DNA of 64,000 nucleotides, taken from IMG/VR virus record IMGVR_UViG_3300027956_000006, one strand, 5' to 3'. The notes below the pieces were generated by a model that saw nothing but the letters and a program-made list of their open reading frames with translations, was not told where the DNA came from and did not search any database. The position numbers and the translations under genes were made by a program. Positions 12,522 to 63,727 of the stretch are shown one piece after another. Origin of the DNA: a virus. Each line of letters starts with the position of its first letter. Positions within the stretch are counted from its first letter, which is position 1.

Positions 12522-13522
12522 AAAGGAGAATAGAATGAGAATTGAATATGGGATAAATCCAAATTGTAGCGAAGCGGTATTTAGATTCTATACCTTAGAA
12601 CCTAAAAAAATACATACAATATTACAATCAATCGCTAATGAAATTTCCAATGAAACTGATTTTACACCACATAAGAAACAAAAAATACCTCTTTTAAAAA
12701 ACGCTGATGATTATGACACCAATTATCATAAGGCAACCAATCAAGAATACGATACTCATTATAAAATAATTAGTGTTTTAGCAGCAAAACGTAACAAACA
12801 AAACGCGACTAAAAAGGAGATTGCTGAAGCTGAAAAAGCACTAAAGATAGAGTATGAACGTTTTAGAAAATTACAATATCGTAATAGTGTATCATTAAAA
12901 GCATGCGCTGGTCTTGGTGATAATGACGCTATTATTACAGTTGAAAAAGAAAATGGATCTTTTCGTTTAAATATAGGTAACAATGATATACAAAATAATA
13001 AAACTAATTGGATAGAAAAAGTAAAAGCATTAGATATTAAGATTGAAGAAGCAGAAGTAGGTGAGAATAATTTAAAAGATTATGCACGTGATTGTACATG
13101 CGGTGTGGTATTTTTTGAATAATGCAAAAATTAATAATTGGTATTAAAATTGATGATAAGATAAACTATCTTAAAACAATAGAAATCCAAGAAAATATTG
13201 ACATAATAAATAGGTTAATTAAAGTTATAGATACTTTTATAAAATATAATCTAGAATAGGAGATAAAAAAATGGAAAAATTATCTAAAAAAGTCATTAAA
13301 GAGAAAATTGCCTTATTAGAAGAGGCTAGAGAGTTAATAGAAAAAGCGGTTGCTAATATTCGTGAAGCCGTACAAGATACTTCTGAAGATTCTAGAGCAG
13401 CTGCATATATTATACCAACATTGGAAATGTGTTGTTATGAAAGTACTAATTGGTTAGGTAAACAAGAATCGAATATCGAAGAATTAATAAACAGTTTAGA
13501 AGAAAGCGAGGATGAGGATTAA

Positions 13523-17735: not shown

Positions 17736-18248
17736 ATGGGAACTCGTGGTGCATGGGGATTCAGAAAAGATAATATTGATAAAATCGCTTATAACCATTA
17801 TGATAGCTATCCAAGTGGACTGGGTGAAACCATTAAACATTTTATTGTTAAGCATAGTATTGAGGAATTAGAAAAAACATTTTACCGAATTATCTTAATT
17901 GATGGTAACACACCACCCAATGAAGAACAAATTAAACAATGTTCAAAATTTTTAGATTTAGGTGTTAGCAACAAAACAAAACAAGATTGGTATTGTTTAT
18001 TACGTGAAGCACAGGGCAATCCCGAAGCTTATGTAAATGATTTAGTATATATGGTGGATAGTGCAGCATTTTTAAAAGATAGTTTATTTTGTGAATGGGC
18101 GTATATAATCAATCTCGATACAAAAAGATTAGAAATATATGAAGGGTGCCAAAAAAGAGCACAAAAAAATAGATACTATAATTGTAAGTTACAGTTTGAA
18201 GTTGATTTAGATAAAGTAAAGACTTTTAAAATAGGAGCTATAAAATGA
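17736..18248 (+). CDS. hypothetical protein immediately upstream of and overlapping rtcB
   Basis: Stop overlaps rtcB start (ATGA); likely co-transcribed with RtcB. Confidence 0.3.
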   Translation: MGTRGAWGFRKDNIDKIAYNHYDSYPSGLGETIKHFIVKHSIEELEKTFYRIILIDGNTPPNEEQIKQCSKFLDLGVSNKTKQDWYCLLREAQGNPEAYVNDLVYMVDSAAFLKDSLFCEWAYIINLDTKRLEIYEGCQKRAQKNRYYNCKLQFEVDLDKVKTFKIGAIK

Positions 18249-19477
18249 TTGAAGTTAAATATAATCCCTTGCATGATAAAATACCAGTAAAATTATGGAC
18301 ACAATATGATAAATTAGAATCTGGTGCTAAAGAGCAGATAGAACATCTCCAACAATTACCTTTCGCATTTCATCATATATCTGTTATGCCAGATGTACAT
18401 CAAGGTTATGGGATGTGTATTGGTGGGGTATTAGCTACTGAAAGAGTAGTTGTGCCAAATGCCGTTGGGGTTGATATTGGATGTGGGATGTGTGCAGTTA
18501 AGACTTCTCTTAAGGCGAATCAATTGGATAAAGAAACTCTTAAAAAGATAATGGATAAGATTAGAGAAGTGATACCATTAGGTATGAATCATCATAAAGA
18601 AAAACAAGATGAGAAGTTAATGCCTGAATCTAATATTCTTTCTGCAATGGGAGCAAATGAAAGTGTAGTTTTTTCTGAGTATAACTCTGCTTTAAAACAA
18701 TTAGGAACGTTAGGTTGCGGTAATCATTTCATTGAAATTCAAAAAGATACTAAAGACTCTGTTTGGATTATGATACATTCAGGAAGTAGAAATTTAGGGT
18801 ATAAAGTTGCTAAATATTACAATGATTTAGCTATTAAATTAAATAAACAATGGTTTAGTTCTGTTCCTAAAGAATGGGAATTAGCATTTCTTCCTATAGA
18901 TAGTCCCGAAGGTCAAAATTATTTAAGTGAAATGCAATATTGTGTTGACTTTGCTTTAGCCAATAGAAAATTAATAATGCAGAGAGTCATAGATATATTT
19001 GCTACGTTTTATGGAGACGGATTTCCTTTGAATTCAGACAACTTTGCTTTTAGAGTAGAACCTATAATTAACATCGCTCATAACTACGCTAGATTGGAAA
19101 ATCATTTCGGAAAAAATGTTATTGTTCATCGTAAAGGTGCTACTTCAGCAAGAAATGGGGAAATAGGTATTATTCCAGGAAGTCAAGGTACAAAATCATA
19201 TATTGTAAGCGGTTTAGGCAACTCTGAAAGTTTTATATCTTGTTCTCACGGAGCTGGAAGAACAATGAGTAGAACAAAGGCACAGACAGAATTAAATCTC
19301 GAAGAAGAAATTAAGTTAATGGACAATCAAGGTATTGTCCATGGAATACGAAACAGAGAAAACTTAGATGAAGCACCTGGGGCATATAAAAATATTACTG
19401 AAGTAATGCATAACCAAGCGGATTTAGTTGAGATATTAATTGAACTTACGCCATTATTGGTTGTTAAAGGAGATTAA
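18245..19477 (+). CDS. rtcB: RNA-splicing ligase RtcB (3'-phosphate/5'-hydroxyl RNA ligase)
   Basis: Strong family signatures: SVMPDVHQGYG, VGVDIGCGM, LGCGNHFIEIQ, WIMIHSGSRNLG, NIAHNY, IIPGSQGTKSYIV, SCSHGAGRTMSRTKA; 410 aa. Confidence 0.95.
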   Translation: MIEVKYNPLHDKIPVKLWTQYDKLESGAKEQIEHLQQLPFAFHHISVMPDVHQGYGMCIGGVLATERVVVPNAVGVDIGCGMCAVKTSLKANQLDKETLKKIMDKIREVIPLGMNHHKEKQDEKLMPESNILSAMGANESVVFSEYNSALKQLGTLGCGNHFIEIQKDTKDSVWIMIHSGSRNLGYKVAKYYNDLAIKLNKQWFSSVPKEWELAFLPIDSPEGQNYLSEMQYCVDFALANRKLIMQRVIDIFATFYGDGFPLNSDNFAFRVEPIINIAHNYARLENHFGKNVIVHRKGATSARNGEIGIIPGSQGTKSYIVSGLGNSESFISCSHGAGRTMSRTKAQTELNLEEEIKLMDNQGIVHGIRNRENLDEAPGAYKNITEVMHNQADLVEILIELTPLLVVKGD

Positions 19478-25364: not shown

Positions 25365-26294
25365 ATGGACAATCAAGAAGTTATTCAGCATTACCTAGAT
25401 TCTCTTATGACATTAAGTAAAGAGACTTTAAAAAATAAGACTTACTTTTTAAACCAATTTCATAATGATCTAAAGAAGCCGTTTGATACAATTACATCAA
25501 ATGATTTACGGAAATATATTATTAATAAAAAAGAATCTGGTAAATGGATAAAAGCAAGTACTGTTTTACAATATATAACATTATTAAAAACATTTTATAA
25601 ATTCCTTGTCAATGAGAATTATATAAAAGATGAAAATAATCCTACTAAAACATTAAAGGCTCCGCGTCAGCACTCTCAAGGGGAACTACGCACTATGTCC
25701 CTTGATGAAATACGAAAATTATTAAAAAGTGTTGAAAGCCCAGCAGTTGAGTTGCGTGATAAGCTTATCTTTTATTTAGCTATGACTTCTGGATTGCGTG
25801 CCTCTGAAATATGTTCAATTAAAAAAAGTAATATCGATTTAACAAAACGTTTGATTTATATCCCCAAAGAAGATGTTAAAGGGCAGTATAGAGAAAAACT
25901 AGTTCCTATTTCTAACAGAACAAAAGAAATCTTAGAACTGTATTTAATTAAATACCCCACATTCAGTGATTTTTTATTTGAAAACCGTTTTAATAAAAAG
26001 TTAGCACGTTTGGCTATATATAACGCTATGAAATTAGTAATTGATGCGGCGTTCCCCTACACAGTAGCTGAAACAAAAGAACAAGTTTCTCGTGTATGGA
26101 AAAAACCTTACGGATCACATATCGCTCGACATACTTTTGCTACCCGTTGGATTGAATCTGGTGGTGATTTACACGCGCTAAGAGCAATTATGGGCTGGAG
26201 ATCGTTTAACCAATTAGATCGTTATGTCAATGTTTCACCAGAATTTATTAAAAACTCTGCATTTAAGGTAGAGCGTAAACTACTAAAGGTGTAA
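25365..26294 (+). CDS. tyrosine recombinase / phage integrase
   Basis: C-terminal catalytic region GSHIARHTFATRWIESGGDLHALRAIMGWRSFNQLDRYVNV (HxxR...Y), with LRASEI box upstream. Confidence 0.85.
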   Translation: MDNQEVIQHYLDSLMTLSKETLKNKTYFLNQFHNDLKKPFDTITSNDLRKYIINKKESGKWIKASTVLQYITLLKTFYKFLVNENYIKDENNPTKTLKAPRQHSQGELRTMSLDEIRKLLKSVESPAVELRDKLIFYLAMTSGLRASEICSIKKSNIDLTKRLIYIPKEDVKGQYREKLVPISNRTKEILELYLIKYPTFSDFLFENRFNKKLARLAIYNAMKLVIDAAFPYTVAETKEQVSRVWKKPYGSHIARHTFATRWIESGGDLHALRAIMGWRSFNQLDRYVNVSPEFIKNSAFKVERKLLKV

Positions 26295-55579: not shown

Positions 55580-55607
55580 TTGACAAAATCATAATTTGTG
55601 TTATAAT
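55580..55607 (+). promoter_or_regulatory. sigma70-type promoter (TTGACA-16-TATAAT) preceding the ncRNA/tRNA island
   Basis: cTTGACAaaatcataatttgtgtTATAATata. Confidence 0.6.
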
Positions 55608-55917
55608 ATAAATATAGTAGAGATTTGATCTTTGATTTAAGAGGACTTAAGTTAAGAGTTCAGAATGTTTATATTAATTATAATGGAAACAGGTTAAATA
55701 ATTACTCCTTGTTCAAGGGGTGTTATTTATTAAACTCTTACTACTTCTCCTCTTTCTTATCGTATAAATTAATAACGGACTATGATAAAGAATACAGAAT
55801 GGTAAAAAGTCTGACTTTGAAATCAGAAAATGTACGTTCGAATCGTACCTTCCCCACCAATAAAAAAATATTGGGGAAGAAAAAAACAATTCTTTTCGCT
55901 TTTCCGTTATTTTAATT

Positions 55918-55989
55918 CGCAGGGTAGTGTAGGGGGAACACACTTGTCTCATACGCAAGAGAACAGTGGTTCAAATCCACTTCCTGCAA
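55918..55989 (+). tRNA. tRNA-Met (anticodon CAU); C1xA72 mismatch suggests initiator-like or Ile2/lysidine type
   Basis: Hand-folded cloverleaf: D stem GTGT/ACAC, anticodon stem CTTGT/GCAAG loop CTCATAC, T arm AGTGG-TTCAAAT-CCACT. Confidence 0.65.
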
Positions 55990-56049
55990 CAAATTTAATA
56001 GTATAAACAAACATGACTATAAAAGTTAGATTCGAACATAAGATGTATA

Positions 56050-56207
56050 AAAACCAAAGCCGTAAGCTTTGGCCCGCAGCCATTTTATGTTCGGGTAGCT
56101 TTAGGCCAGCGTTTGTTTCTACAGATAATATAACCGATTCACAGTAGAACGTAGCTGACAGATCTAGGACCTAAAGCTACCGACTACTAAAAAGAGTCGG
56201 TTTTTTT
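56050..56207 (+). ncRNA. structured ncRNA of unknown class ending in an intrinsic terminator (candidate Y-like / sRNA)
   Basis: Hairpins CCAAAGC-CGTAA-GCTTTGG and CCCG...CGGG; 14-bp helix GGTAGCTTTAGGCC / GGACCTAAAGCTACC with a bulged A enclosing 59 nt; ends with CCGACT-ACTAAAAAG-AGTCGG + T8. Confidence 0.45.
56179..56207 (+). terminator. Rho-independent terminator
   Basis: CCGACT(ACTAAAAAG)AGTCGG followed by TTTTTTT. Confidence 0.7.
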
Positions 56208-56213
56208 ATTTAT

Positions 56214-56286
56214 GCCGCTGTGGTCTACGGGTTAGGACGCGAGAATTTCACTCTCGCAAAGCGAGTTCGATCTCTCGCCAGCGGTG
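56214..56286 (+). tRNA. tRNA-Glu (UUC)
   Basis: Acceptor GCCGCTG/CAGCGGT, D stem GTCT/GGAC, anticodon stem GCGAGA/TCTCGC loop ATTTCAC, T arm GCGAG-TTCGATC(T)-CTCGC. Confidence 0.65.
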
Positions 56287-56294
56287 CTAGAATT

Positions 56295-56370
56295 GCCTCG
56301 TTAGCATAGTTTGGCTCAATGCGTTGGCTTGTCACGCCAAAGATCGGGGATTCAAATTCCCCACGGGGCG
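56295..56370 (+). tRNA. tRNA-Asp (GUC)
   Basis: Acceptor GCCTCGT/ACGGGGC, D stem GCAT/ATGC, anticodon stem TTGGC/GCCAA loop TTGTCAC, T arm GGGGA-TTCAAAT-TCCCC. Confidence 0.85.
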
Positions 56371-56379
56371 CTAAGAATT

Positions 56380-56636
56380 TAGTTAATGAACTAGCTACGG
56401 GTAAGCCTTAATGACTTATCTGAGGAAAGTCCAGGCTCTACATAGCAGCGTATCAAAGCTAACAACTTTGAGCAATCATAAAATTGACGATAAGAGGACA
56501 GAGACGAGAAAAATGAGACGACCAATCTCTACGCAGAGCAAGATCAAACAGAACCTGACCTGCTCGGTCGATAGGTTCGGGTAACGATCGCATAGACGGA
56601 TGGCTAGATAAACAAAACCTGGCTTATCATTAACTA
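56380..56636 (+). ncRNA. rnpB: RNase P RNA (compact, ~255 nt)
   Basis: P4 strands GAGGAAAGTCCAGGCTC (hallmark GGAAAGUCCGGGCUC) and ACAAAACCTGGCTTATC (ACAGAACCCGGCUUAUC) with compensatory CGG>CAG / CCG>CTG changes; P1 GTTAATGA / TCATTAAC closes the molecule; CATAGCAGCG after P4 matches CAUAGGGCA. Confidence 0.65.
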
Positions 56637-56646
56637 AATACTTTTT

Positions 56647-56732
56647 GGAGGGTATGTGCATGGTTAGATTGGCACGCCAGTTTGCTAAACTGGAAATCGA
56701 AAGAAACGCAGGAGCGTCACCTGCACCCTCCG
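56647..56732 (+). tRNA. tRNA-Ser (GCU), class II with long variable arm; atypical T loop
   Basis: Acceptor GGAGGGT/ACCCTCC perfect, D stem GTGC/GCAC, anticodon stem CCAGT/ACTGG loop TTGCTAA, 14-nt variable arm, T arm GCAGG-AGCGTCA-CCTGC. Confidence 0.55.
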
Positions 56733-56750
56733 CAAAAAAATTAAGAAAAA

Positions 56751-57434
56751 ATGAAAAAATATGTTTTATATAAAACAATCAATAAAATAAATAAGAAATT
56801 TTATATTGGTGCCCATATAACAGAGAATATTAATGATAATTACATAGGATCGGGATTATATTTATGTCAAGATATTAAAAAATACGGTAAAAATAATTTC
56901 AAAAAGATAGTTTTGAATTGTTTTAATTCGAAAGATGAATTATTATGTGCTGAAAAAAAATTATTGGACGCTAGGTACATAAAAAAGAATAAGCATCGAT
57001 TATATAATAGAAATGGTGGCGGGGCAGGATCGTGGATATATAATAATTATTTTTCTCCAAATAGAAAAGAACGATATAAAAGAATTTATATAAAATTCAA
57101 AAAATTGTTGCGCAATAGAGAATGGAGAAAGGAATTTTGTACAAAACTATCAATAGGACAGAAACAAGCTAGAGCTAAAGGCTTGTGTAAAGGATTTTTG
57201 AATAAAAAGCATACTAATAAATTTAAAAGGTTTATCGGTAAAATAAATGCAATTCAAAATAAAGGCAGAAATAATCCTCAATATAACAAAAAATGGATAT
57301 CGAATCTAAGATTTAAGAAATCTGTTCTTATTAAAAAAAACCTGATACAAGATTATTTAGCTCAAGGTTGGATAATTGGTAGAAGATTTAATGCTGGGTG
57401 TTTTGGGAAATTGGAAGAGTTGACGGAAGTATAG
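56751..57434 (+). CDS. GIY-YIG homing endonuclease
   Basis: N-terminal YVLYKTINKINKKFYIGA (GIY...YIG) ; basic C-terminal DNA-binding region; located between tRNA/ncRNA genes. Confidence 0.7.
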   Translation: MKKYVLYKTINKINKKFYIGAHITENINDNYIGSGLYLCQDIKKYGKNNFKKIVLNCFNSKDELLCAEKKLLDARYIKKNKHRLYNRNGGGAGSWIYNNYFSPNRKERYKRIYIKFKKLLRNREWRKEFCTKLSIGQKQARAKGLCKGFLNKKHTNKFKRFIGKINAIQNKGRNNPQYNKKWISNLRFKKSVLIKKNLIQDYLAQGWIIGRRFNAGCFGKLEELTEV

Positions 57435-57599
57435 AGATCCGACTTGTCTTGAAAACAGGTAACCGTTAATTACGGCATGTAGGGGCAGAACCTACCTCTT
57501 CCGCAAGATAGGAGCTTAAGCTAACAGCAAACTGTCGGTCTCCAAAACCGAATTTACTGGGGCGGAACCAGTAGCTCCTGCAATTGGTGAAAAAAGTTA

Positions 57600-57628
57600 C
57601 TGACAAATTAATTAATTATGCTATAATA
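57600..57628 (+). promoter_or_regulatory. sigma70-type promoter (CTGACA-17-TATAAT) driving downstream tRNA cluster
   Basis: aCTGACAaattaattaattatgcTATAATatat. Confidence 0.55.
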
Positions 57629-57637
57629 TATATAATT

Positions 57638-57711
57638 GGCACTATGGCTGAGTGGTCGAAAGCGATTGTCTGCAAAACAATTTATCAAGAGTTCAAATCT
57701 CTTTAGTGCCT
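57638..57711 (+). tRNA. tRNA-Cys (GCA)
   Basis: Acceptor GGCACTA/TAGTGCC, anticodon stem ATTGT/ACAAT loop CTGCAAA, T arm AAGAG-TTCAAAT-CTCTT. Confidence 0.75.
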
Positions 57712-57715
57712 CAAC

Positions 57716-57794
57716 GAGTCCGATGTCGACTGGTCAGACACTTGCCTTTTAAGCAAGCGCATTTTGCAAGCGAGTTCGATTCTCGCCGGGCTCA
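57716..57794 (+). tRNA. tRNA-like with UUU anticodon (Lys?) and anomalous 12-nt variable region
   Basis: Acceptor GAGTCCG/CGGGCTC, D stem TGTC/GACA, anticodon stem CTTGC/GCAAG loop CTTTTAA, T arm GCGAG-TTCGATT-CTCGC; 79 nt. Confidence 0.45.
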
Positions 57795-57801
57795 CTAGTT
57801 C

Positions 57802-57873
57802 GGGCGTATAGCAAAATGATAATGCAGTTGGCTCTTAACCAGCATATTGGAGGTTTGAGTCCTCCTACGCCCA
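57802..57873 (+). tRNA. tRNA-Lys (CUU)
   Basis: Acceptor GGGCGTA/TACGCCC, anticodon stem GTTGG/CCAGC loop CTCTTAA, T arm GGAGG-TTTGAGT-CCTCC. Confidence 0.7.
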
Positions 57874-57992
57874 CATTATTGCTCCGGAAGACAAGGTGCG
57901 AATCCTTATATATAACAGCTTGCGGTGAAGGCGCCAACCAACCCAAAAGCGACATTATATTAGTGTAATTTTAGCACACCGGGGTTTTAAAT

Positions 57993-58063
57993 TACAGTGT
58001 CCTCTAACGATAGGAGAATGGGCTTTGAACCCGTCAATGAAGGTTTGATTCCTTCCGCTGTAG
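57993..58063 (+). tRNA. tRNA-Gln (UUG)
   Basis: Acceptor TACAGTG/CGCTGTA, anticodon stem ATGGG/CCCGT loop CTTTGAA, T arm GAAGG-TTTGATT-CCTTC; weak 3-bp D stem. Confidence 0.5.
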
Positions 58064-58491
58064 CTAAAATGGAGATGATATGACTGTTGAAGAAAAGAAA
58101 TTAATTGATGATATGACACAATACGAATTATGTCATAGATGGAGATTTGCTAAAATTGGAGATCCTTTATTCCAAGGAGATACTGGTGAATATTATAGTA
58201 AAATTTTAAAAGAAAAAGGTGGTTTTACACCAGAAATTTCAAAACAATTAGGGTGGTTTTAAATGAAAGTCAAAAATTATTTAGGATGGTTGCAAGATAT
58301 GGAGCATTATCGTGAGGGGTATACTTGGCATTATTATATAAATAAAGAAAAAAGTATTTGTGGAAAAAGCAAACATCCTACACAACAATGGAATGCTGCA
58401 TATATGAGAGGTAGAACCTGTAAAAAATGCTTAAACTATTGTAAAAAAAATAAATTAGAAGTTATATAATATCTTATAGAGTATATTAAAT

Positions 58492-58562
58492 TGCGAAGTC
58501 GACTAATGGTAGGCCGCAACGCTCTGAACGTTGAAATCAAGTTTCGATTACTTGCTTCGCAG
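58492..58562 (+). tRNA. tRNA-Gln (CUG)
   Basis: Acceptor TGCGAAG/CTTCGCA, anticodon stem CAACG/CGTTG loop CTCTGAA, T arm CAAGT-TTCGATT-ACTTG; imperfect D stem. Confidence 0.5.
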
Positions 58563-58576
58563 CTAGAAAGGTAATA

Positions 58577-59905
58577 ATGAAAAATAAAATATTTGAGTTG
58601 TTTAAAGATTTTGAGATATTTCTTGTTGGCGGTTCAGTAAGAGATAAACTCTTGAATATAGAAACTAACGATTTAGATTTCGCTACTAGCGCAACCCCAG
58701 ATCAATCTAAAGCAATACTCGAAGCTGCTGGGTATCATCCGCATACTGTTGGATGGGCATTTGGCACAGTTGGTATTGTAAATGATCAATATGAGGTACA
58801 TATTACGACATATCGTAAGGCTGAAGATTATCAGCGCGATAATCGAAACCCGACAGTTGAATGGGGAAAAACTATTCAAGAAGATCTTATAAGACGTGAT
58901 TTTACCATTAATGCACTAGCACAAAATAGCACCGGCGAGATCATAGATTTATTTAATGGAGTACAACATCTTAAAGATAAGTTACTTGTTACACCGATCG
59001 ATGCGAATATAGCGTTTAATGATGATCCTTTAAGGATGTTACGAGCTGTAAGATTTAAGGCAAGACTTGGTTTTGAATATAGCACAAATGTACAAGAAGC
59101 TTTATATAGACAAGCACATCGTTTATTAATTCTTCCAAAAGAAAGGATCCAAGAAGAATTAAATAAGATTTTAATGACAGATAATGCGGCAGATGCATTA
59201 CATGATTTATATCAATTTAGATTACTAGATTATATAATTCCTGAATTAAAGATGTTAAGTAAGATCGAGCAAGACAGTATTTACCATTCAAAAAATGCAT
59301 TATTACATACCATAGAGGTATTGCGTAATACTTCAAAAGATATAATCTTAAGATATGCCGCAATCTTTCACGACTTGGGTAAAATGGTAACCCGGTCTGT
59401 AGAAAATGGTAATGTCCATTTTTATCATCACGAGAATATTTCGGCGCTTATGACATATCCAATTCTACAAAGATTAGGTTTACCAAAACGCTGGTGTAAA
59501 GATATTACATATCTAGTGAGAAATCATATGCGTGCTAATACCTATGAAAAAGACTGGTCAGATAGTGCAGTAAGACGTTTTATACGTGATACTGGTGAAT
59601 ATTGCGATAGACTTTTAGTACTTAGTAGAGCTGATATCACTAGTCATAACCCAATTACTGTGCAGAAGCATCTCGATTCTTTAAATGATTTTGAAAGACG
59701 TATTAATGAATTAAGAAATTTTAAAGAATTAAAATGCCCAATAAGTGGTTTAGTTATTATGGAATTCTTTGATTTACCAGCCTGCAAGAAAGTTGGTGAA
59801 ATAAAAGAGTTGATTCTGAATGCTATCATTAATGGTGAATTAAAAATTGAAGACAGTGAAGAAGTAATATTAGAATATGCGAAACGCAAGATGGAGATAA
59901 AATAA
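58577..59905 (+). CDS. cca: tRNA nucleotidyltransferase (CCA-adding enzyme), class II with HD domain
   Basis: FLVGGSVRDKLLN...NDLDFAT head-domain motif, RDFTINAL, ERI..EL, and HD motif AAIFHDLGK. Confidence 0.85.
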   Translation: MKNKIFELFKDFEIFLVGGSVRDKLLNIETNDLDFATSATPDQSKAILEAAGYHPHTVGWAFGTVGIVNDQYEVHITTYRKAEDYQRDNRNPTVEWGKTIQEDLIRRDFTINALAQNSTGEIIDLFNGVQHLKDKLLVTPIDANIAFNDDPLRMLRAVRFKARLGFEYSTNVQEALYRQAHRLLILPKERIQEELNKILMTDNAADALHDLYQFRLLDYIIPELKMLSKIEQDSIYHSKNALLHTIEVLRNTSKDIILRYAAIFHDLGKMVTRSVENGNVHFYHHENISALMTYPILQRLGLPKRWCKDITYLVRNHMRANTYEKDWSDSAVRRFIRDTGEYCDRLLVLSRADITSHNPITVQKHLDSLNDFERRINELRNFKELKCPISGLVIMEFFDLPACKKVGEIKELILNAIINGELKIEDSEEVILEYAKRKMEIK

Positions 59906-60222
59906 TGTTAGAAATTAATAAAAAATTAGGAAGAGAATAGAGCATACATATGCAATATTTATTAACAGAAGAAGAATATTTAAAATTGGAAAGAAACCCA
60001 GATAAAGATAAGACTGAATCTCTTTTAAATGATTTACGTACTAAAGTTTTAACATTAGCTAATTTTAAATGTCTGCATCAAATTACAGACGTAGATTATG
60101 AAAAAGGATTAAATGTTGATGAGGGTTATTGTGATAATTGTCCATTAAGTTTTTGTAAAAATGAAAACCTTAAAATGAAACATTATCTATGTGGTTGTGA
60201 TACTTTATATTCTAAATAAACA

Positions 60223-60298
60223 CAGTGCGTGGGCCAACTTGGATTAGGTCGCCTGGCCTGGAACCAGGAGGTTGAAGGTTCAAATCCTTCCGTGCTGA
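60223..60298 (+). tRNA. tRNA-Pro (UGG)
   Basis: Acceptor CAGTGCG/CGTGCTG (two GU), D stem GGCC/GGTC, anticodon stem CCTGG/CCAGG loop CCTGGAA, T arm GAAGG-TTCAAAT-CCTTC. Confidence 0.65.
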
Positions 60299-60303
60299 CT
60301 TTC

Positions 60304-60347
60304 GGAGTAGTTAAGTACATTAAAAGAGTTCGCGACTCTCTACTCCA
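60304..60347 (+). ncRNA. tRNA-like minihelix / truncated tRNA (acceptor stem + T arm only)
   Basis: GGAGTAG...CTACTCC 7-bp acceptor-like stem enclosing AGAG-TTCGCGA-CTCT T-arm-like hairpin; no anticodon arm; 44 nt, immediately upstream of HNH gene. Confidence 0.4.
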
Positions 60348-60366
60348 CTAAAATATTTGAAAGGAG

Positions 60367-60882
60367 TTGATTAAGTTGAGAGTTTTAGTTTTAAATAGTT
60401 CGTATGAATTTCTTGGTTTTTGTGATTGGCAATCTGCCATTTGTGCTAAAGTATCCGGTAAGGTTTATGTTGAGGAAGAATATGAGCAGGAAGTAAGATC
60501 ACCTTCAACAACTATGCGTATTCCTGCCGTTATTAGATTACGTCATTATGTAAAAGTTACATATGAAAAAGTGATGTATGTTTCATATACTAAACGTAAT
60601 GTGCATCTAAGAGATAACTATACTTGTCAATATTGTCATACAAAACATGATGCTAGAAAATTAGGTATTGATCATGTATTACCTGAATCACGAGGGGGTT
60701 TAACAACTTGGGAAAATACCGTATCTTGTTGTCATGGATGTAATTTAGTGAAAGATAATAGAACACCTGAAGAAGCAAAAATGAAACTTATGCGTATTCC
60801 AACTAAACCTAGAGGGTTCAGAGAAATCATTAGGATTAAAATTGGTGAGTTACATGATCTTTGGGAAAAGTATTTATTTTAG
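60367..60882 (+). CDS. HNH homing endonuclease
   Basis: CQYCHTKHDARKLGIDHVLPESRGGLTTWENTVSCCHGCNLVKDN (HNH with Zn-binding Cys pairs); sits between tRNA genes. Confidence 0.75.
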   Translation: MIKLRVLVLNSSYEFLGFCDWQSAICAKVSGKVYVEEEYEQEVRSPSTTMRIPAVIRLRHYVKVTYEKVMYVSYTKRNVHLRDNYTCQYCHTKHDARKLGIDHVLPESRGGLTTWENTVSCCHGCNLVKDNRTPEEAKMKLMRIPTKPRGFREIIRIKIGELHDLWEKYLF

Positions 60883-60887
60883 AAATT

Positions 60888-60961
60888 GGTGGGTATCGTC
60901 TAGCGGTTAAGGATACAAGGTCGTGACCCTTGTGACACGAGTTCGAGTCTCGTTACTCACC
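60888..60961 (+). tRNA. tRNA-His (GUG) with G-1:C73
   Basis: Extra 5' G pairing with discriminator C, acceptor GTGGGTA/TACTCAC, anticodon stem CAAGG/CCTTG loop TCGTGAC, T arm ACGAG-TTCGAGT-CTCGT. Confidence 0.8.
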
Positions 60962-60970
60962 CTAAGATAT

Positions 60971-61053
60971 GCGTAGGTATCCAAATGATGAAGGGCGCAG
61001 TCTGTAAAACTGTTACATTCGAAACGTTGCAAGTTTGAATCTTGCCCTACGCA
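60971..61053 (+). tRNA. tRNA-Tyr (GUA), class II
   Basis: Acceptor GCGTAGG/CCTACGC perfect, anticodon stem GCAGT/ACTGT loop CTGTAAA, long variable arm, T arm GCAAG-TTTGAAT-CTTGC. Confidence 0.75.
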
Positions 61054-61066
61054 CTAATTTGAAAGG

Positions 61067-61543
61067 TTGAATATGAAAATTGGTATTATTGGTCATGGTG
61101 CAGATAAATTCACAGAAGTTAGTAGATTAAATGCAGCAGAATTAATTGCAGCTATTTTAAAAGATTATTGTGTACAATGTATTGAGAAAAGAGATTATGA
61201 TACAGGATTTGTTTCAGGACATTCACCTGTAGGTGGGGTTGATATATGGGGAGAAAAAATAGCAAAACTATTAGGTATTCCGTTAGAACTTAAGATACCT
61301 AAACAAAAATGTTGGGACGCAGAATACGGATTTAAACAACGTAATTTAGATATTGCAAGTTCTTCAGATATACTACATATAATTTTAGTAGATAAATACC
61401 CGAAAGATTATAAAGGTAGAAAGTTTAGTAAATGTTACCATTGTAATAGTTCTGATCATGTAAAGTCTGGAGCATGTTGGACAGCAAAAGAAGCTCGAAA
61501 ATTGAATAAAGAAGTTATATATCACATAATTAGAAATGAATAA
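61067..61543 (+). CDS. hypothetical protein with C-terminal CCHC zinc knuckle (possibly SLOG/LOG-like fold)
   Basis: KIGIIGHGADKF ... CYHCNSSDHVKSGAC. Confidence 0.3.
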   Translation: MNMKIGIIGHGADKFTEVSRLNAAELIAAILKDYCVQCIEKRDYDTGFVSGHSPVGGVDIWGEKIAKLLGIPLELKIPKQKCWDAEYGFKQRNLDIASSSDILHIILVDKYPKDYKGRKFSKCYHCNSSDHVKSGACWTAKEARKLNKEVIYHIIRNE

Positions 61544-61706
61544 ATTAATTAAAACCGAGTCTGGATGTGCTTATTGTCAGCAAAAAGGGTTTATTCATAT
61601 CCATACTGATATGCAAACATATGCTTTAAATGGTTTTGTAGATAATGAAGAAGCGATAAAAATGTTTAATATAGTATGTGAAAAAATAAAATATTTTAGA
61701 TATGAT

Positions 61707-61777
61707 GGGCAGGTCGTCTAATGGGAGGATTTCTGTTTTGCAAACAGAGGATAGGGATTCGAGTTCCCTCCAGTCCA
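61707..61777 (+). tRNA. tRNA-Ala (UGC)
   Basis: Acceptor GGGCAGG/CCAGTCC (one AxA mismatch), D stem GTCT/GGAT, anticodon stem TCTGT/ACAGA loop TTTGCAA, T arm AGGGA-TTCGAGT-TCCCT; 5' end overlaps stop of ORF 61536-61721. Confidence 0.6.
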
Positions 61778-61863
61778 CAAAAATTCGGCTCGTAGCGGAG
61801 ACGCAAGCATCAGATTAAGTCTGAAGTAGGTAGAGGTGGCGTACTACCGAGCTGACCAAAATG

Positions 61864-61934
61864 AGATATAGGTGTTGATGATTGCACACTACATTGCCAA
61901 TGTAGAAGAACGGGTTTAAATCCCGTATATCTCT
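61864..61934 (+). tRNA. tRNA-Gly (GCC)
   Basis: Acceptor GAGATAT/ATATCTC, D stem GTGT/ACAC, anticodon stem CTACA/TGTAG loop TTGCCAA, T arm ACGGG-TTTAAAT-CCCGT. Confidence 0.85.
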
Positions 61935-61951
61935 CTGTTCTTTTTAATATT

Positions 61952-62023
61952 GCCCGTCTAGTGATAACGTTAGCACAACGGTCCTGTAAACCGTGAGTCG
62001 CAGTTGAATTCTGCGGATGGGCT
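61952..62023 (+). tRNA. tRNA-Thr (UGU)
   Basis: Acceptor GCCCGTC/GATGGGC, anticodon stem ACGGT/ACCGT loop CCTGTAA, T arm CGCAG-TTGAATT-CTGCG. Confidence 0.7.
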
Positions 62024-62145
62024 CTAAATTTATATGATATCTGCAACGATACTAGTTAATGCAGAGCTGAAAACCAACTAAATGCTCAGGGAAACTCTCT
62101 AAGATAATTTAGAAGGATGCACCAAAGAGTTAGTTTATCATATTT

Positions 62146-62216
62146 GCCAGCATAGTTCAATGTTAGAATAAGGCTTTCGTAAAGCTTAGATTTGGGTTAA
62201 ATTCCCAGTGTTGGCT
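62146..62216 (+). tRNA. tRNA-Thr (CGU)
   Basis: Acceptor GCCAGCA/TGTTGGC, D stem GTTC/GAAT, anticodon stem AGGCT/AGCTT loop TTCGTAA, T arm TTGGG-TTAAATT-CCCAG. Confidence 0.65.
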
Positions 62217-62227
62217 TTAAAATTAAT

Positions 62228-62300
62228 GCCATTGTAGCTCAAGAGGAAGAGCGCTAACTTGGTAAGTTAGAGGTTGTCAGATCGTTACTGACCTTTGGCT
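62228..62300 (+). tRNA. tRNA-Thr (GGU)-like with two UxU mismatches in acceptor stem
   Basis: D arm GCTC-AAGAGGAA-GAGC, anticodon stem CTAAC/GTTAG loop TTGGTAA, T arm GTCAG-ATCGTTA-CTGAC; acceptor GCCATTG/CTTTGGC imperfect. Confidence 0.5.
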
Positions 62301-62321
62301 AAGTTATCAGGGCTGTGTAAT

Positions 62322-62393
62322 GCGTCTGAAGTGTTGGAGAGTGCACTACAGTTTTCCAAACTGTGAGAATGGGTTTAACTCCCATCAGACGCT
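62322..62393 (+). tRNA. tRNA-Gly (UCC)
   Basis: Acceptor GCGTCTG/CAGACGC, anticodon stem ACAGT/ACTGT loop TTTCCAA, T arm ATGGG-TTTAACT-CCCAT. Confidence 0.8.
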
Positions 62394-62410
62394 CTAATAA
62401 AAGGAGAATG

Positions 62411-62611
62411 AAAATGCAGAAGAAACCAAATTGTTACAAATGTGAATTTCGAGGTTCAATACCAGGTGATGCACATTCACAATGTCATAACATAAATGCA
62501 CATGTAGAAGGAGACGCTTATGGTAGACGATCTGGGTGGTTTTTCTGGCCAGTAAATTTTGATCCAGTATGGTTAGAATCGTGTGACGGATTTAAGGCAA
62601 TTAAAAAATAA
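62411..62611 (+). CDS. small Cys/His-rich protein (ORF track start 62363 lies inside tRNA-Gly; real start probably ATG 62411 after AAGGAG)
   Basis: RBS aaaggag 7 nt upstream of ATG; CYKCEF...HSQCHN...C motifs. Confidence 0.4.
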   Translation, partial: KMQKKPNCYKCEFRGSIPGDAHSQCHNINAHVEGDAYGRRSGWFFWPVNFDPVWLESCDGFKAIKK

Positions 62612-62620
62612 TGATATAAT

Positions 62621-62692
62621 GCCGGGTTAGCTGAGATAGATTAGCGCTGCGCTGAAGACGCGGAGAGGTCAGATCGATACTGACATCCGGCA
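62621..62692 (+). tRNA. tRNA-Phe (GAA)
   Basis: Acceptor GCCGGGT/ATCCGGC, D stem GCTG/TAGC, anticodon stem CTGCG/CGCGG loop CTGAAGA, T arm GTCAG-ATCGATA-CTGAC. Confidence 0.8.
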
Positions 62693-62702
62693 CAAAAAAA
62701 TA

Positions 62703-62730
62703 TTGACATTTGATAAGAATGTGATATAAT
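62703..62730 (+). promoter_or_regulatory. sigma70-type promoter (TTGACA-16-TATAAT)
   Basis: aTTGACAtttgataagaatgtgaTATAATata. Confidence 0.55.
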
Positions 62731-62751
62731 ATAAATGTTACAAAAAATGAT

Positions 62752-62826
62752 AGCTAGGTACCATAATGTTAATGGAACGAGCTGTTAACTCGTGATATGA
62801 AAGTTAGACTCTTTCCCTAGCTGCCA
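62752..62826 (+). tRNA. tRNA-Asn (GUU) with encoded CCA
   Basis: Acceptor AGCTAGG/CCTAGCT, D stem CCAT/ATGG, anticodon stem ACGAG/CTCGT loop CTGTTAA, T arm GAAAG-TTAGACT-CTTTC, then G-CCA. Confidence 0.85.
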
Positions 62827-62850
62827 ATATAGTTTGTTCTTTTAAAATTT

Positions 62851-63242
62851 GGGGACGATCAGGTTTCGATTTAAATAAATAAGCATGGATCGCACATCGC
62901 AGACGCAATGTTGGCTGCGTTAACAAACATTGCAAATCTAAACGCAGACGAAAATACCCGTTTGTTAGCTGAAGCAAATGCTATTGTAGCACATGTATTT
63001 GCCGATGCACCAGTCGTAGCTACAATATAGTTACGCACCTACTTATTTTGTGTAAGTAATAAGTAAGGTACGATATTACACTAGTTTTAATATTGTCTTG
63101 ATATTAAAATGAAACTAAAAGACTATGTGTGTATGAACATGTCTGTTTGTATGTACACAATGAAGATAAAACAATAGACTATATGTGTAGCATATTTATG
63201 TTTAATTATTTAAAGACCGCGGTTCAATTCCGCGCGTCTCCA
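62851..63242 (+). ncRNA. ssrA: tmRNA (SsrA) with unusually long tag reading frame
   Basis: 5' GGGGACGATCAGGTTTCGA (cf. GGGGCUGAUUCUGGAUUCGA), 3' T arm CGCGG-TTCAATT-CCGCG + CGTCTCC-A pairing with 5' GGGGACG; internal frame GCA GAC GAA AAT ACC ... ATA TAG (ADENTRLLAEANAIVAHVFADAPVVATI*) resembling ANDENYALAA start. Confidence 0.65.
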
Positions 63243-63250
63243 CAATATAT

Positions 63251-63325
63251 GTCTGGGTCGCCTAATTGGTAATGGCAACTGGTCTACACCCAGTAATAAT
63301 GAGTGTTCAAGTCACTCCCTAGACA
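63251..63325 (+). tRNA. tRNA-Val (UAC)
   Basis: Acceptor GTCTGGG/CCTAGAC, anticodon stem ACTGG/CCAGT loop TCTACAC, T arm GAGTG-TTCAAGT-CACTC. Confidence 0.7.
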
Positions 63326-63331
63326 CTAATT

Positions 63332-63421
63332 GGACGGTTAGTTTAAATGACAAAACCCACGGCTTATACCCGTGAAGCTCCCGATTAGAGCGCATTGTAG
63401 GTTTGAATCCTACACCGTCTA
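63332..63421 (+). tRNA. class II (long variable arm, 90 nt) tRNA with anticodon UAU
   Basis: Acceptor GGACGGT/ACCGTCT, D stem GTTT/AAAC, anticodon stem CACGG/CCGTG loop CTTATAC, variable arm GCTC-CCGATTA-GAGC, T arm GTAGG-TTTGAAT-CCTAC. Confidence 0.55.
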
Positions 63422-63431
63422 CTAAATATAT

Positions 63432-63553
63432 GGGTATGGTCTGTTATAAAGCAAAGCACAGACTTGAGCAAAGATAAACGGGATAAGCTCCGTAGAGGTA
63501 TGCTGACAGAATAGAGGTTGCTCTCTAAATGAGTGAAATTCTCATCATACCCG
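63432..63553 (+). ncRNA. 122-nt tRNA-like element (7-bp acceptor-like closing stem, D-like and T-like arms, ~50-nt insertion where anticodon arm should be)
   Basis: GGGTATG...CATACCC closing stem; GTCTGT/ACAGAC hairpin; ATGAG-TGAAATT-CTCAT hairpin; GAGCAA...TTGCTC long-range pairing. Confidence 0.35.
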
Positions 63554-63563
63554 CTAATTCATT

Positions 63564-63637
63564 CTCCGTGTGGCTGAGAGGTTAAGAGCGCAGAGCTGAT
63601 AACTCTGAGGACGTGTGTTCAATTCACACCGCGGAGA
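63564..63637 (+). tRNA. tRNA-Ile (GAU)
   Basis: Acceptor CTCCGTG/CGCGGAG, anticodon stem CAGAG/CTCTG loop CTGATAA, T arm GTGTG-TTCAATT-CACAC. Confidence 0.7.
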
Positions 63638-63643
63638 CTATTT

Positions 63644-63718
63644 GCCCCTGTCGCCTAATTGAAAATGGCATTTCGCTACGAACGAAAAATAATGCGCGTT
63701 TGAATCGCGCTGGGGGCA
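63644..63718 (+). tRNA. tRNA-Arg (ACG)
   Basis: Acceptor GCCCCTG/TGGGGGC, anticodon stem TTTCG/CGAAA loop CTACGAA, T arm GCGCG-TTTGAAT-CGCGC. Confidence 0.75.
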
Positions 63719-63727
63719 CTAAATACT

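Follow-up and report, generated by a model that had tools for sequence, protein, structure and literature searches.

What is a gene for RNase P RNA, regarded as a cellular or organellar housekeeping ribozyme, doing in the DNA of a virus? The question is raised by a 64,000-nt stretch (the window) of the IMG/VR virus record IMGVR_UViG_3300027956_000006, in which the original prediction, made from the letters of the sequence, placed an RNase P RNA (RPR) gene between tRNA-Asp and tRNA-Ser, in an island rich in tRNA genes that also carries a transfer-messenger RNA (tmRNA) and a CCA-adding enzyme. The best explanation of the locus, and on balance a probable one, is that a phage encodes a minimised RPR which would work with the RnpA protein of its host and mature the tRNAs of the phage. 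Its score and its core features both place the RNA in the RNase P RNA family; it is new in its architecture and in its phage and tRNA-operon context, and its function is presumed from strong structural conservation.

Architecture of the RNase P RNA

The RPR (56379-56641, + strand) matches Rfam family RF00010 end to end (model positions 1-367), with 112.2 bits against a gathering score of 100 and an E value of 1.7e-33, so bearing out the gene predicted at 56380-56636. The Rfam alignment, together with a pair-by-pair check, has all helices pairing, i.e. P1 (11 bp), P2 (6 bp), P3 (8 bp), P4 (8 bp, with a bulged U52), P5 (4 bp) and the P6 pseudoknot (4 bp); P7, P8, P9, P10 and P11, which form the cruciform, are also kept, as are P15, P16 and P17. 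The P4 pseudoknot is made by conserved regions CR-I GAGGAAAGUCC and CR-V ACAnAAcCnGGCUUA, with the bulged U, and both regions, CR-V as ACAAAACCUGGCUUA, are intact. GGGUA (the L15 GGU) is found on the 3' strand of the internal loop between P15 and P16, its GGGU being common to all five phage RPRs considered below, and J5/15 is A-rich.

The losses concern peripheral helices. In the Rfam alignment the 79 consensus positions of P12, P13 and P14 are represented by 11 nt, and the 24 of P18 by none; P13 and P14 are the helices that separate type A from type B RNAs. The P1-to-P1 core (56379-56637) is 259 nt long, where typical bacterial P RNAs have 340-420 nt (PMC4919922). P11 is closed by a 24-nt loop, ACAGAGACGAGAAAAAUGAGACGA, which keeps the J11/12 sequence ACAGAGACGAG (ACAGAGA) and a J12/13-like sequence, AUGAGACGA. 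Because two relatives retain remnants of P12 at this point (a 6-bp hairpin between ACAGAGACGAG and GUGAAACG in L040 and a 3-bp stub in L218), the loop can be understood as J11/12 fused to a J12/13-like strand. The RNA is a genuine bacterial type A RPR, pared to its functional core; its catalytic domain is whole, and its specificity domain consists of the P7-P11 cruciform only, plus the 24-nt loop. This strongly minimised form of the type A RNA had not been noticed in the original prediction. That either the RPR or the tmRNA might be an attP-type gene fragment was considered and rejected, both matching their models end to end.

Selection on the RNA and its occurrence in related phages

A covariance model, R1, built from the window RPR and two metagenomic relatives, found an identical RPR (281.7 bits) on four contigs (L214-L216) which also have an identical CCA enzyme, and diverged RPRs in L056 (276 bits), L036 (254 bits), L219/L220 (198 bits) and L218 (122 bits). 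In each case the RPR sits between tRNA genes at the equivalent position; the flanking genes are Asp and Ser in the window, L036 and L219/L220, Ser on both sides in L218, and Leu and Pro in L056. All five distinct phage RPRs exceed the Rfam gathering score (111-147 bits).

When these five sequences, which are ~65% identical where measured, are aligned, 91.4% of cells are paired and 44 of the 73 pairs have changed on both sides. None of 500 shuffles matched the observed values. The alignment was fitted to the model, so these counts are biased towards structure; the covariation signal is nevertheless taken to be real because sliding the 3' partners reduced pairing to 29-41% and the swaps are visible helix by helix. 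P6 (4 bp) is 95% paired. P4, the positions of which are nearly invariant in cellular RPRs, is 100% paired in the five phage RNAs, with four of its eight pairs compensated, the variants being AAACUCCGGU/ACCGGGUU in L219 (8597-8856) and AAGUACGGU/ACCGUCUU in L218 (3381-3658). The sequence and length of P3, P8, P9 and P16 vary among the relatives, and the hairpins persist. As judged from these alignments, purifying selection acts on the structure of the RPR.

Such conservation bears directly on the idea of a relic, i.e. of captured host DNA in decay, the RPR being a pseudogene that has travelled with the neighbouring tRNA-Ser. An RNA far shorter than normal, with an Rfam score barely over threshold (112 vs 100) and missing from several related phages, is what that idea would lead one to expect; but copies that have diverged to ~65% identity have kept 91% of their pairs, 44 of them compensated and P4 included, the variable P3, P8, P9 and P16 have remained hairpins, and the deletions amount to the precise loss of peripheral helices, not to random damage. 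Decay is therefore extremely improbable.

Presence of the RPR follows relatedness, as measured by identity of the CCA enzyme to that of the window. The RNA is present at 100%, 75% (L218) and 70% (L219/L220) identity, and absent at 67% (L221), 64% (L222), 61% (L031) and 60% (L223). L031 and L221 keep the Met-Glu-Asp...Cys gene order, with an open reading frame (ORF) of GIY-YIG-like type replacing the RPR and tRNA-Ser. Because related phages with CCA-enzyme identity of 67% or less do without it, the RPR is accessory, dispensable for such phages and confined to one subclade. The simplest reading of this distribution would be a single gain of the RPR beside a homing-endonuclease hotspot.

RNase P RNAs on other viral and metagenomic contigs

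When IMG/VR was scanned for the P4 motif, 30 loci were obtained, of which 19 have an RF00010 match above threshold. At least nine IMG/VR contigs, 31-463 kb long, have arrays of 5-29 tRNAs that contain an RPR, with 0-17 nt between it and the tRNA upstream (L004, L006, L010, L013, L017, L021, L028, L029 and, with a mini form, the 202-kb L078). Scanning for a short P4-to-P4 spacing gave 46 metagenome loci in 27 sequence clusters, and the metagenome contigs L065 (673 kb) and L064 (791 kb) have mini RPRs in or near dense tRNA arrays. Some mini RPRs fall under the Rfam gathering score of 100 (L078, 84.9 bits; L035, 82.4 bits). Since exact P4 patterns miss copies with an altered P4 (e.g. L218 and L219), the counts of phage RPRs are lower bounds. 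Differently reduced specificity domains are seen among the mini RPRs in or near tRNA arrays (L078, L035, L062/L068, L064/L032 and the L065 group). Another pattern, ACAGAGACGANNNNNNTGANACGA, proved too unspecific on viral contigs, at least 117 loci being found and none having an RPR by covariance-model search.

Among 50,697 GenBank phage records, megablast of the island gave no match, and blastn of the window RPR and two IMG/VR RPRs no match to a cultured phage; apart from chance hits, blastn returned faecal contigs that are labelled 'Bacteriophage sp.' and carry no annotation, and assemblies of two uncultured Acinetobacter phages. Full-text searches of open-access papers turned up no account of an RNase P RNA encoded by a phage, though an earlier report elsewhere is possible, and a phage-borne RNase P RNA appears to be undescribed. 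The original prediction that such an RNA is rare to undescribed thus agrees with the literature, but not with the sequence databases, given the IMG/VR contigs and the many metagenome mini RPRs listed above: the phage RPR is rare in the literature and is not rare in public sequence data. There is about an even chance that a more general statement holds, namely that viruses encode diverse, unreported RNase P ribozymes within tRNA arrays, ranging from near full size to ~240-260 nt, some of them sub-threshold or with a compensated non-consensus P4, and employ them during infection either to maintain the 5' maturation of tRNAs or to redirect it, the window form being among the smallest natural bacterial-type RPRs to have every functional module.

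Related mini RNAs on bacterial chromosomes

The same short-spacing scan of 185,579 GTDB species genomes gave 18 loci, all in metagenome-assembled genomes (MAGs), and in none of these genomes does the short-spacing RPR pattern have a tRNA-array context. A window-like architecture, with a near-identical 24-nt loop (ACAGAGACGAG..AUGUGAAACGAGCA), is present in the rumen Bacteroidales/Paludibacteraceae MAGs L196, L203, L206 and L210 and in ~11 rumen metagenome contigs (L034, L042, L043, L046, L049, L054, L057, L060, L061, L063 and L072). These RNAs are ~255 nt long (141.7 bits for L210 with Rfam) and ~45-49% identical to the window RPR in a MAFFT alignment. Their neighbours are genes for an alpha-amylase, a BrkB/YihY-family protein, glutamate dehydrogenase and a pseudouridine synthase, with one tRNA-Gly upstream. 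With the rumen forms added, an alignment of 15 sequences has 92.4% of cells paired, 50 of 73 pairs compensated and P4 100% paired.

The rumen Bacteroidales RNAs therefore have the same reduced architecture, loop and length class as the window RPR, but differ from it in being chromosomal, in having a single upstream tRNA-Gly and in having an extra hairpin in J2/4. It appears that the reduced architecture is viable in cells, serving as the chromosomal RPR of some Bacteroidales, and the rumen RNA may represent a minimal type A RPR of cells that has so far gone undescribed. A Bacteroidota host for the phage, as the shared architecture might suggest, was not adopted; the three TTGACA/TATAAT promoters of the island, listed below, favour a host with canonical sigma-70.

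Organisation of the island

The stable-RNA genes, promoters and associated protein genes are as follows, with the source of each assignment.

18245-19477, + strand: RtcB-family RNA ligase (tRNA repair); the island begins 37 kb downstream
55580-55607, + strand: sigma-70-type promoter (TTGACA, 16 nt, TG-TATAAT; 12/12), before the first stable-RNA operon
55918-55990, + strand: tRNA-Met (CAU), C1xA72 mismatch at acceptor end (ARAGORN, Rfam)
56214-56287, + strand: tRNA-Glu (UUC) (ARAGORN, Rfam)
56295-56371, + strand: tRNA-Asp (GUC), 7 nt upstream of P1 of the RPR (ARAGORN, Rfam)
56379-56641, + strand: RNase P RNA, minimised type A (Rfam RF00010)
56647-56733, + strand: tRNA-Ser (GCU), class II (ARAGORN)
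56751-57434, + strand: probable GIY-YIG (Seg-like) homing endonuclease (sub-threshold matches; homologous ORFs in L031 and L221)
57600-57627, + strand: sigma-70-type promoter (11/12, extended -10), before tRNA-Cys
57638-57712, + strand: tRNA-Cys (GCA) (ARAGORN, Rfam)
57716-57795, + strand: tRNA-Lys (UUU), 80 nt (ARAGORN, Rfam)
57802-57874, + strand: tRNA-Lys (CUU) (ARAGORN, Rfam)
57993-58064, + strand: tRNA-Gln (UUG) (ARAGORN, Rfam)
58492-58563, + strand: tRNA-Gln (CUG) (ARAGORN, Rfam)
58577-59905, + strand: class II tRNA nucleotidyltransferase (CCA-adding type) with HD domain (Pfam, NCBIfam)
60223-60299, + strand: tRNA-Pro (UGG) (ARAGORN, Rfam)
60367-60882, + strand: HNH endonuclease (HNH_5)
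60889-60962, + strand: tRNA-His (GUG) (ARAGORN, Rfam)
60971-61054, + strand: tRNA-Tyr (GUA) (ARAGORN, Rfam)
61707-61778, + strand: tRNA-Ala (UGC) (ARAGORN, Rfam)
61863-61935, + strand: tRNA-Gly (GCC) (ARAGORN, Rfam)
61952-62023 (approximate), + strand: candidate tRNA-Thr (UGU) of non-canonical type; position 33 is C and the D arm is atypical (fold only; uncalled by ARAGORN and Rfam)
62146-62216, + strand: tRNA-Thr (CGU) (ARAGORN, Rfam)
62228-62300, + strand: tRNA-Thr (GGU) (ARAGORN, Rfam)
62322-62394, + strand: tRNA-Gly (UCC) (ARAGORN, Rfam)
62621-62692, + strand: tRNA-Phe (GAA) (Rfam only)
62703-62730, + strand: sigma-70-type promoter (12/12, extended -10), before tRNA-Asn and tmRNA
62752-62826, + strand: tRNA-Asn (GUU), the sole island gene with an encoded CCA (ARAGORN)
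62851-63245, + strand: tmRNA, one-piece, tag ADENTRLLAEANAIVAHVFADAPVVATI then stop (ARAGORN, Rfam)
63251-63326, + strand: tRNA-Val (UAC) (ARAGORN, Rfam)
63332-63422, + strand: class II tRNA with UAU anticodon, 91 nt (ARAGORN, Rfam, fold)
63564-63638, + strand: tRNA-Ile (GAU) (ARAGORN, Rfam)
63644-63719, + strand: tRNA-Arg (ACG) (ARAGORN, Rfam)

The tRNA calls are the union of ARAGORN and Rfam at gathering thresholds. ARAGORN called 22 tRNAs and one tmRNA, every one on the + strand, between 55918 and 63719, and Rfam called 22 tRNAs above its gathering score; tRNA-Ser(GCU) was called by ARAGORN and not by Rfam, tRNA-Phe(GAA) by Rfam and not by ARAGORN. The union is 23 firm tRNAs, plus the candidate tRNA-Thr(UGU), so the dense array of the original prediction stands, with a number slightly under the ~25 proposed; the inventory of species was correct as listed, its third Thr being the uncalled, non-canonical cloverleaf. 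To call the set near-complete was generous, as neither tRNA-Leu nor tRNA-Trp was found in the window by ARAGORN or Rfam and Arg and Ser have one species apiece. The density, 23 tRNAs in 7.8 kb (~2.9 per kb), is far above chance expectation and satisfies the definition of a tRNA array unit, i.e. at least 20 tRNA genes at two or more per kb (PMC4758250). The C1xA72 mismatch might suggest that tRNA-Met is an initiator; this assignment was not adopted, the three G-C pairs being missing from the anticodon stem.

The tmRNA, likewise predicted, is full-length (RF00023, 137.5 bits against a gathering score of 47) and has a tag reading frame; tmRNAs are also present in the relatives L218 and, with a related tag, L031. 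A search with the Rfam models had been proposed as the check on the RNase P and tmRNA calls, and both score above threshold.

The predicted CCA-adding enzyme is a tRNA nucleotidyltransferase of CCA-adding type; it has the Pfam PolyA_pol head, RNA-binding and HD domains, and its best NCBIfam match is TIGR02692 (CCA tRNA nucleotidyltransferase) with 357 bits (under the cut-off of 438.8), against 156 bits for PcnB. Addition of CCA, of CC or of A would each be compatible with the sequence. For the two homing endonucleases proposed the outcome was uneven. The HNH gene is clear (HNH_5, 8e-13), but the GIY-YIG ORF has sub-threshold matches only, with 17.4 bits against 22.6 for PF01541 and 17.3 against 25 for SegE_GIY-YIG (E about 0.005) and, in a further search, an E value of 2.8e-4; its N terminus reads YVLY...FYIG.

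Several further RNA features of the island deserve mention. The 91-nt class II tRNA with a UAU anticodon has a long variable arm and A73, and is also found at 11583-11673 of L218, so that it is kept in two phages. The combination is unusual, Ile tRNAs being class I, and the amino acid that this RNA inserts at AUA could be one other than Ile. In the 141-nt gap at 63423-63563, a 7-bp acceptor-like stem and a T-arm-like hairpin surround a large insert (minimum free energy -33 kcal/mol); neither ARAGORN nor Rfam makes a call there, and the predicted fold may be that of a tRNA-like RNA, or of a tRNA with an insertion. L218 encodes, at 12946-13020, an amber-suppressor tRNA (anticodon CUA), to which ARAGORN gives the label Pyl; its presence hints at stop-codon recoding within part of the phage lineage.

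Between tRNA-Met and tRNA-Glu (55991-56213, + strand) there is a structured non-coding element of ~220 nt, which was found in all the relatives, RPR-bearing or RPR-less (L031, 7941-8186; L218, 2730-3034; L219, 8096-8334; L221, 7144-7393). It comprises a GAACCAAAG-N5-CUUUGGC hairpin, the motif AUUUUAUGUUCG and, at its end, a long hairpin with U7 behind it. Of the 39 pairs predicted by RNAalifold, 10 have compensatory changes, and no Rfam family matches at E<=1.

Phage or chromosome

The window is ~30% G+C, with all ORFs of at least 150 aa on the + strand. It has replication genes (helicase, primase-helicase, sliding clamp and clamp loader) and others for methyltransferases, a radical-SAM protein, a GP88-family protein and a nucleoside deoxyribosyltransferase; many of its genes have PHROG matches. 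A CCA enzyme 100% identical to that of the window, P0001, occurs in JGI and Logan samples on 9-10 contigs, the longest of 175,053 bp, and DNA identical to the window is found on such metagenome contigs. The relative L031, a 135-kb IMG/VR contig, has the same tRNA order and a tmRNA, and relatives carry genes for Dda-like helicase, Phage_endo_I, Pam3_Gp34, Tad2-like and T4-endoV-like proteins, RNA ligase and peptide deformylase. No loci related to the window were found by way of its helicase.

Could the window instead be chromosomal DNA, from a bacterium or a symbiont, or else plasmid DNA, its tRNA/rnpB/ssrA locus being an ordinary one? The tyrosine integrase seen at 25365-26294 would be in keeping with this, as would the chromosomal location of some mini RPRs and the lack of any virion structural or terminase gene in the 64 kb or the fetched flanks. 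However, the location on one strand of all ORFs of 150 aa or more, the lack of ribosomal or metabolic housekeeping genes and the many PHROG matches speak against this, and the primase-helicase matches 72 phage records vs 6 plasmids. HNH and probable GIY-YIG genes lie among the tRNAs, only one of which has a gene-encoded CCA, the relatives include a viral contig (L031) and carry phage-type genes, and the GTDB scan found no tRNA-array context for the short-spacing pattern. A chromosomal or plasmid origin is thus very improbable. The window is held with high confidence to be phage DNA, the assignment falling short of certainty because no capsid, portal or terminase gene is in the DNA read; the context looks phage-like, as originally predicted, and not like that of a bacterial tRNA/rnpB locus.

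The RtcB-family ligase is counted here as part of the RNA-maintenance toolkit of the island. A Tad2-like (anti-Thoeris) gene lies near the tRNA island of L221 (4101-4325), and together with the ligase it fits a theme of RNA repair and counter-defence.

Expression, processing and proposed role

Three near-perfect sigma-70 promoters directly precede runs of tRNA genes, so the island is probably read by host polymerase as polycistronic precursors. The RPR begins 7 nt past tRNA-Asp and its core ends 9 nt short of tRNA-Ser. CCA is encoded by one of the 24 tRNA and tmRNA genes (tRNA-Asn), and the lack of CCA from the other 23 explains the co-encoded nucleotidyltransferase. In 20 of the 24 genes the discriminator is followed by a single C and usually then by TA(A/G), a uniform 'N73-C-UA' junction that may be a processing signal. 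A search for rnpA in the window, with an RNR-motif regular expression and a three-sequence hidden Markov model, found none, a weak test on a partial genome; applied to 106 loci, it gave one match, in L052, a tRNA-free and probably cellular contig, and this match acts as the positive control. As the phage DNA read has no rnpA-like ORF by this search, the RPR probably works with host RnpA.

Taken together, the proposal is that the island comprises the stable-RNA operons of a large phage (at least 175 kb), driven by host-type sigma-70 promoters. The RPR would be transcribed within a tRNA precursor, its 3' end being set when RNase P cuts the 5' end of tRNA-Ser and its 5' end by 3' processing of the upstream tRNA-Asp. 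It would then assemble with host RnpA and supplement the RNase P available for maturing the 5' ends of the 23-24 phage tRNAs and of the tmRNA, with the co-encoded CCA-adding enzyme finishing the 3' ends of 23 of the 24 genes. The RPR is presumably expressed and catalytically active, and would partner host RnpA and be of benefit to the phage; the benefit may lie in added capacity, in independence from host rnpB or in capture of host RnpA. The statement of the original prediction that the element takes over tRNA maturation should be put more cautiously, no RnpA gene having been found in the 64 kb and the RPR gene being accessory.

Several observations weigh against this proposal. L031 and L221 keep most of the tRNA island and have no RPR; rnpA was not detected; and the missing capsid, portal and terminase genes leave the phage context less secure. 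L9, which is GUGA in both L036 and L056, does not form a GNRA tetraloop in the window RPR, and loss of the tertiary braces P12-P14 and P18 may make for poor RNA-alone activity. The partner of the L15 GGU is the 3' CCA, which phage primary transcripts lack; as a speculation, conservation of the GGU might mean that substrates already have CCA when they are cleaved.

Some of these points would also suit an RPR that is under selection for a main role other than bulk tRNA 5' maturation, e.g. in soaking up or hijacking host RnpA, so that the host's own tRNA maturation is starved, as an enzyme dedicated to class II tRNAs, to the tmRNA or to further RNAs of the phage, or as a back-up that counts only if host rnpB RNA is lost or attacked in the course of infection. 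The heavily altered specificity domain, the class II tRNA-Ser that neighbours the RPR in four of the five relatives, the accessory status of the RPR within the phage lineage and the lack of rnpA in the phage DNA seen all point in this direction. By contrast, the features that bind substrate (J11/12, the J12/13-like strand, L15 GGU, the A-rich J5/15 and P4) are kept, and the architecture is apparently that of the chromosomal RPR in some Bacteroidales, which fits general tRNA processing. A non-bulk role is accordingly regarded as unlikely, and maturation of the phage tRNAs with host RnpA is preferred.

An RPR encoded by a virus adds a tRNA-maturing enzyme to the translation genes owned by phages, i.e. 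tRNAs, tmRNA, aminoacyl-tRNA synthetases and ribosomal proteins. It makes testable the question of whether RNase P capacity is limiting, or attacked, when phages flood a cell with tRNA precursors. The phage RPRs (~245-265 nt, without P12-P14 and P18 and with swaps in P4) constitute a natural deletion experiment, which could refine what a minimal ribozyme needs. Standard phage annotation pipelines do not seek RPRs, and would miss sub-threshold or altered-P4 variants.

Comparison with known systems

With the RF00010 RNAs, of which E. coli M1 RNA is the type, the window RPR shares the catalytic core, P4 with its bulged U, P6, P15-P17 with the L15 GGU, and P7-P11; it differs from this norm in its ~259 nt, in the lack of P12, P13/P14 and P18, and in being phage-encoded within a tRNA operon. 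Natural reduction has precedents. Archaeal type A RPRs lack P13/P14/P18 (PMC4919922) and, according to PMC4919922 and PMC3790967, the Pyrobaculum RNA has almost no specificity domain and that of Mycoplasma has no P12. The same peripheral helices are lost in these RNAs and the catalytic core is kept, but they are cellular genes, the archaeal forms needing several proteins, whereas the window RPR, by its sequence a bacterial type A RNA, has lost P12, P13/14 and P18 together.

The yeast mitochondrial RPM1 gene is flanked by, and co-transcribed with, tRNA genes. More generally, organellar rnpB genes, as portrayed in PMC3790967, are reduced RPR genes in small genomes that have their own tRNAs, with the protein partner encoded elsewhere. 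The island resembles organellar rnpB and RPM1 in its tRNA punctuation arrangement and its reduced RPR; organellar rnpB was inherited from bacteria, whereas the window RPR was acquired by a virus, in one subclade only.

Among phages, the closest parallels are the translation islands of huge phages, in the survey of which tRNA arrays, tmRNA and tRNA nucleotidyltransferase were described in large phages (Al-Shayeb et al. 2020, PMC7162821). That survey used tRNAscan-SE for tRNAs and ARAGORN for tmRNAs; its main text does not mention RNase P and describes no RPR search (PMC7162821). The dense tRNA array, tmRNA and nucleotidyltransferase are as in the window, the RPR being what sets the window apart. 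In the tRNA region of T4 the GIY-YIG homing endonuclease SegB promotes inheritance of the region (as cited in PMC6582537), and RNase P cleaves the precursors of phage tRNAs (PMC11143913). Like the T4 region, the island is a tRNA cluster, with an embedded gene that is probably of GIY-YIG type; by contrast, T4 has no RPR gene and uses host RNase P exclusively.

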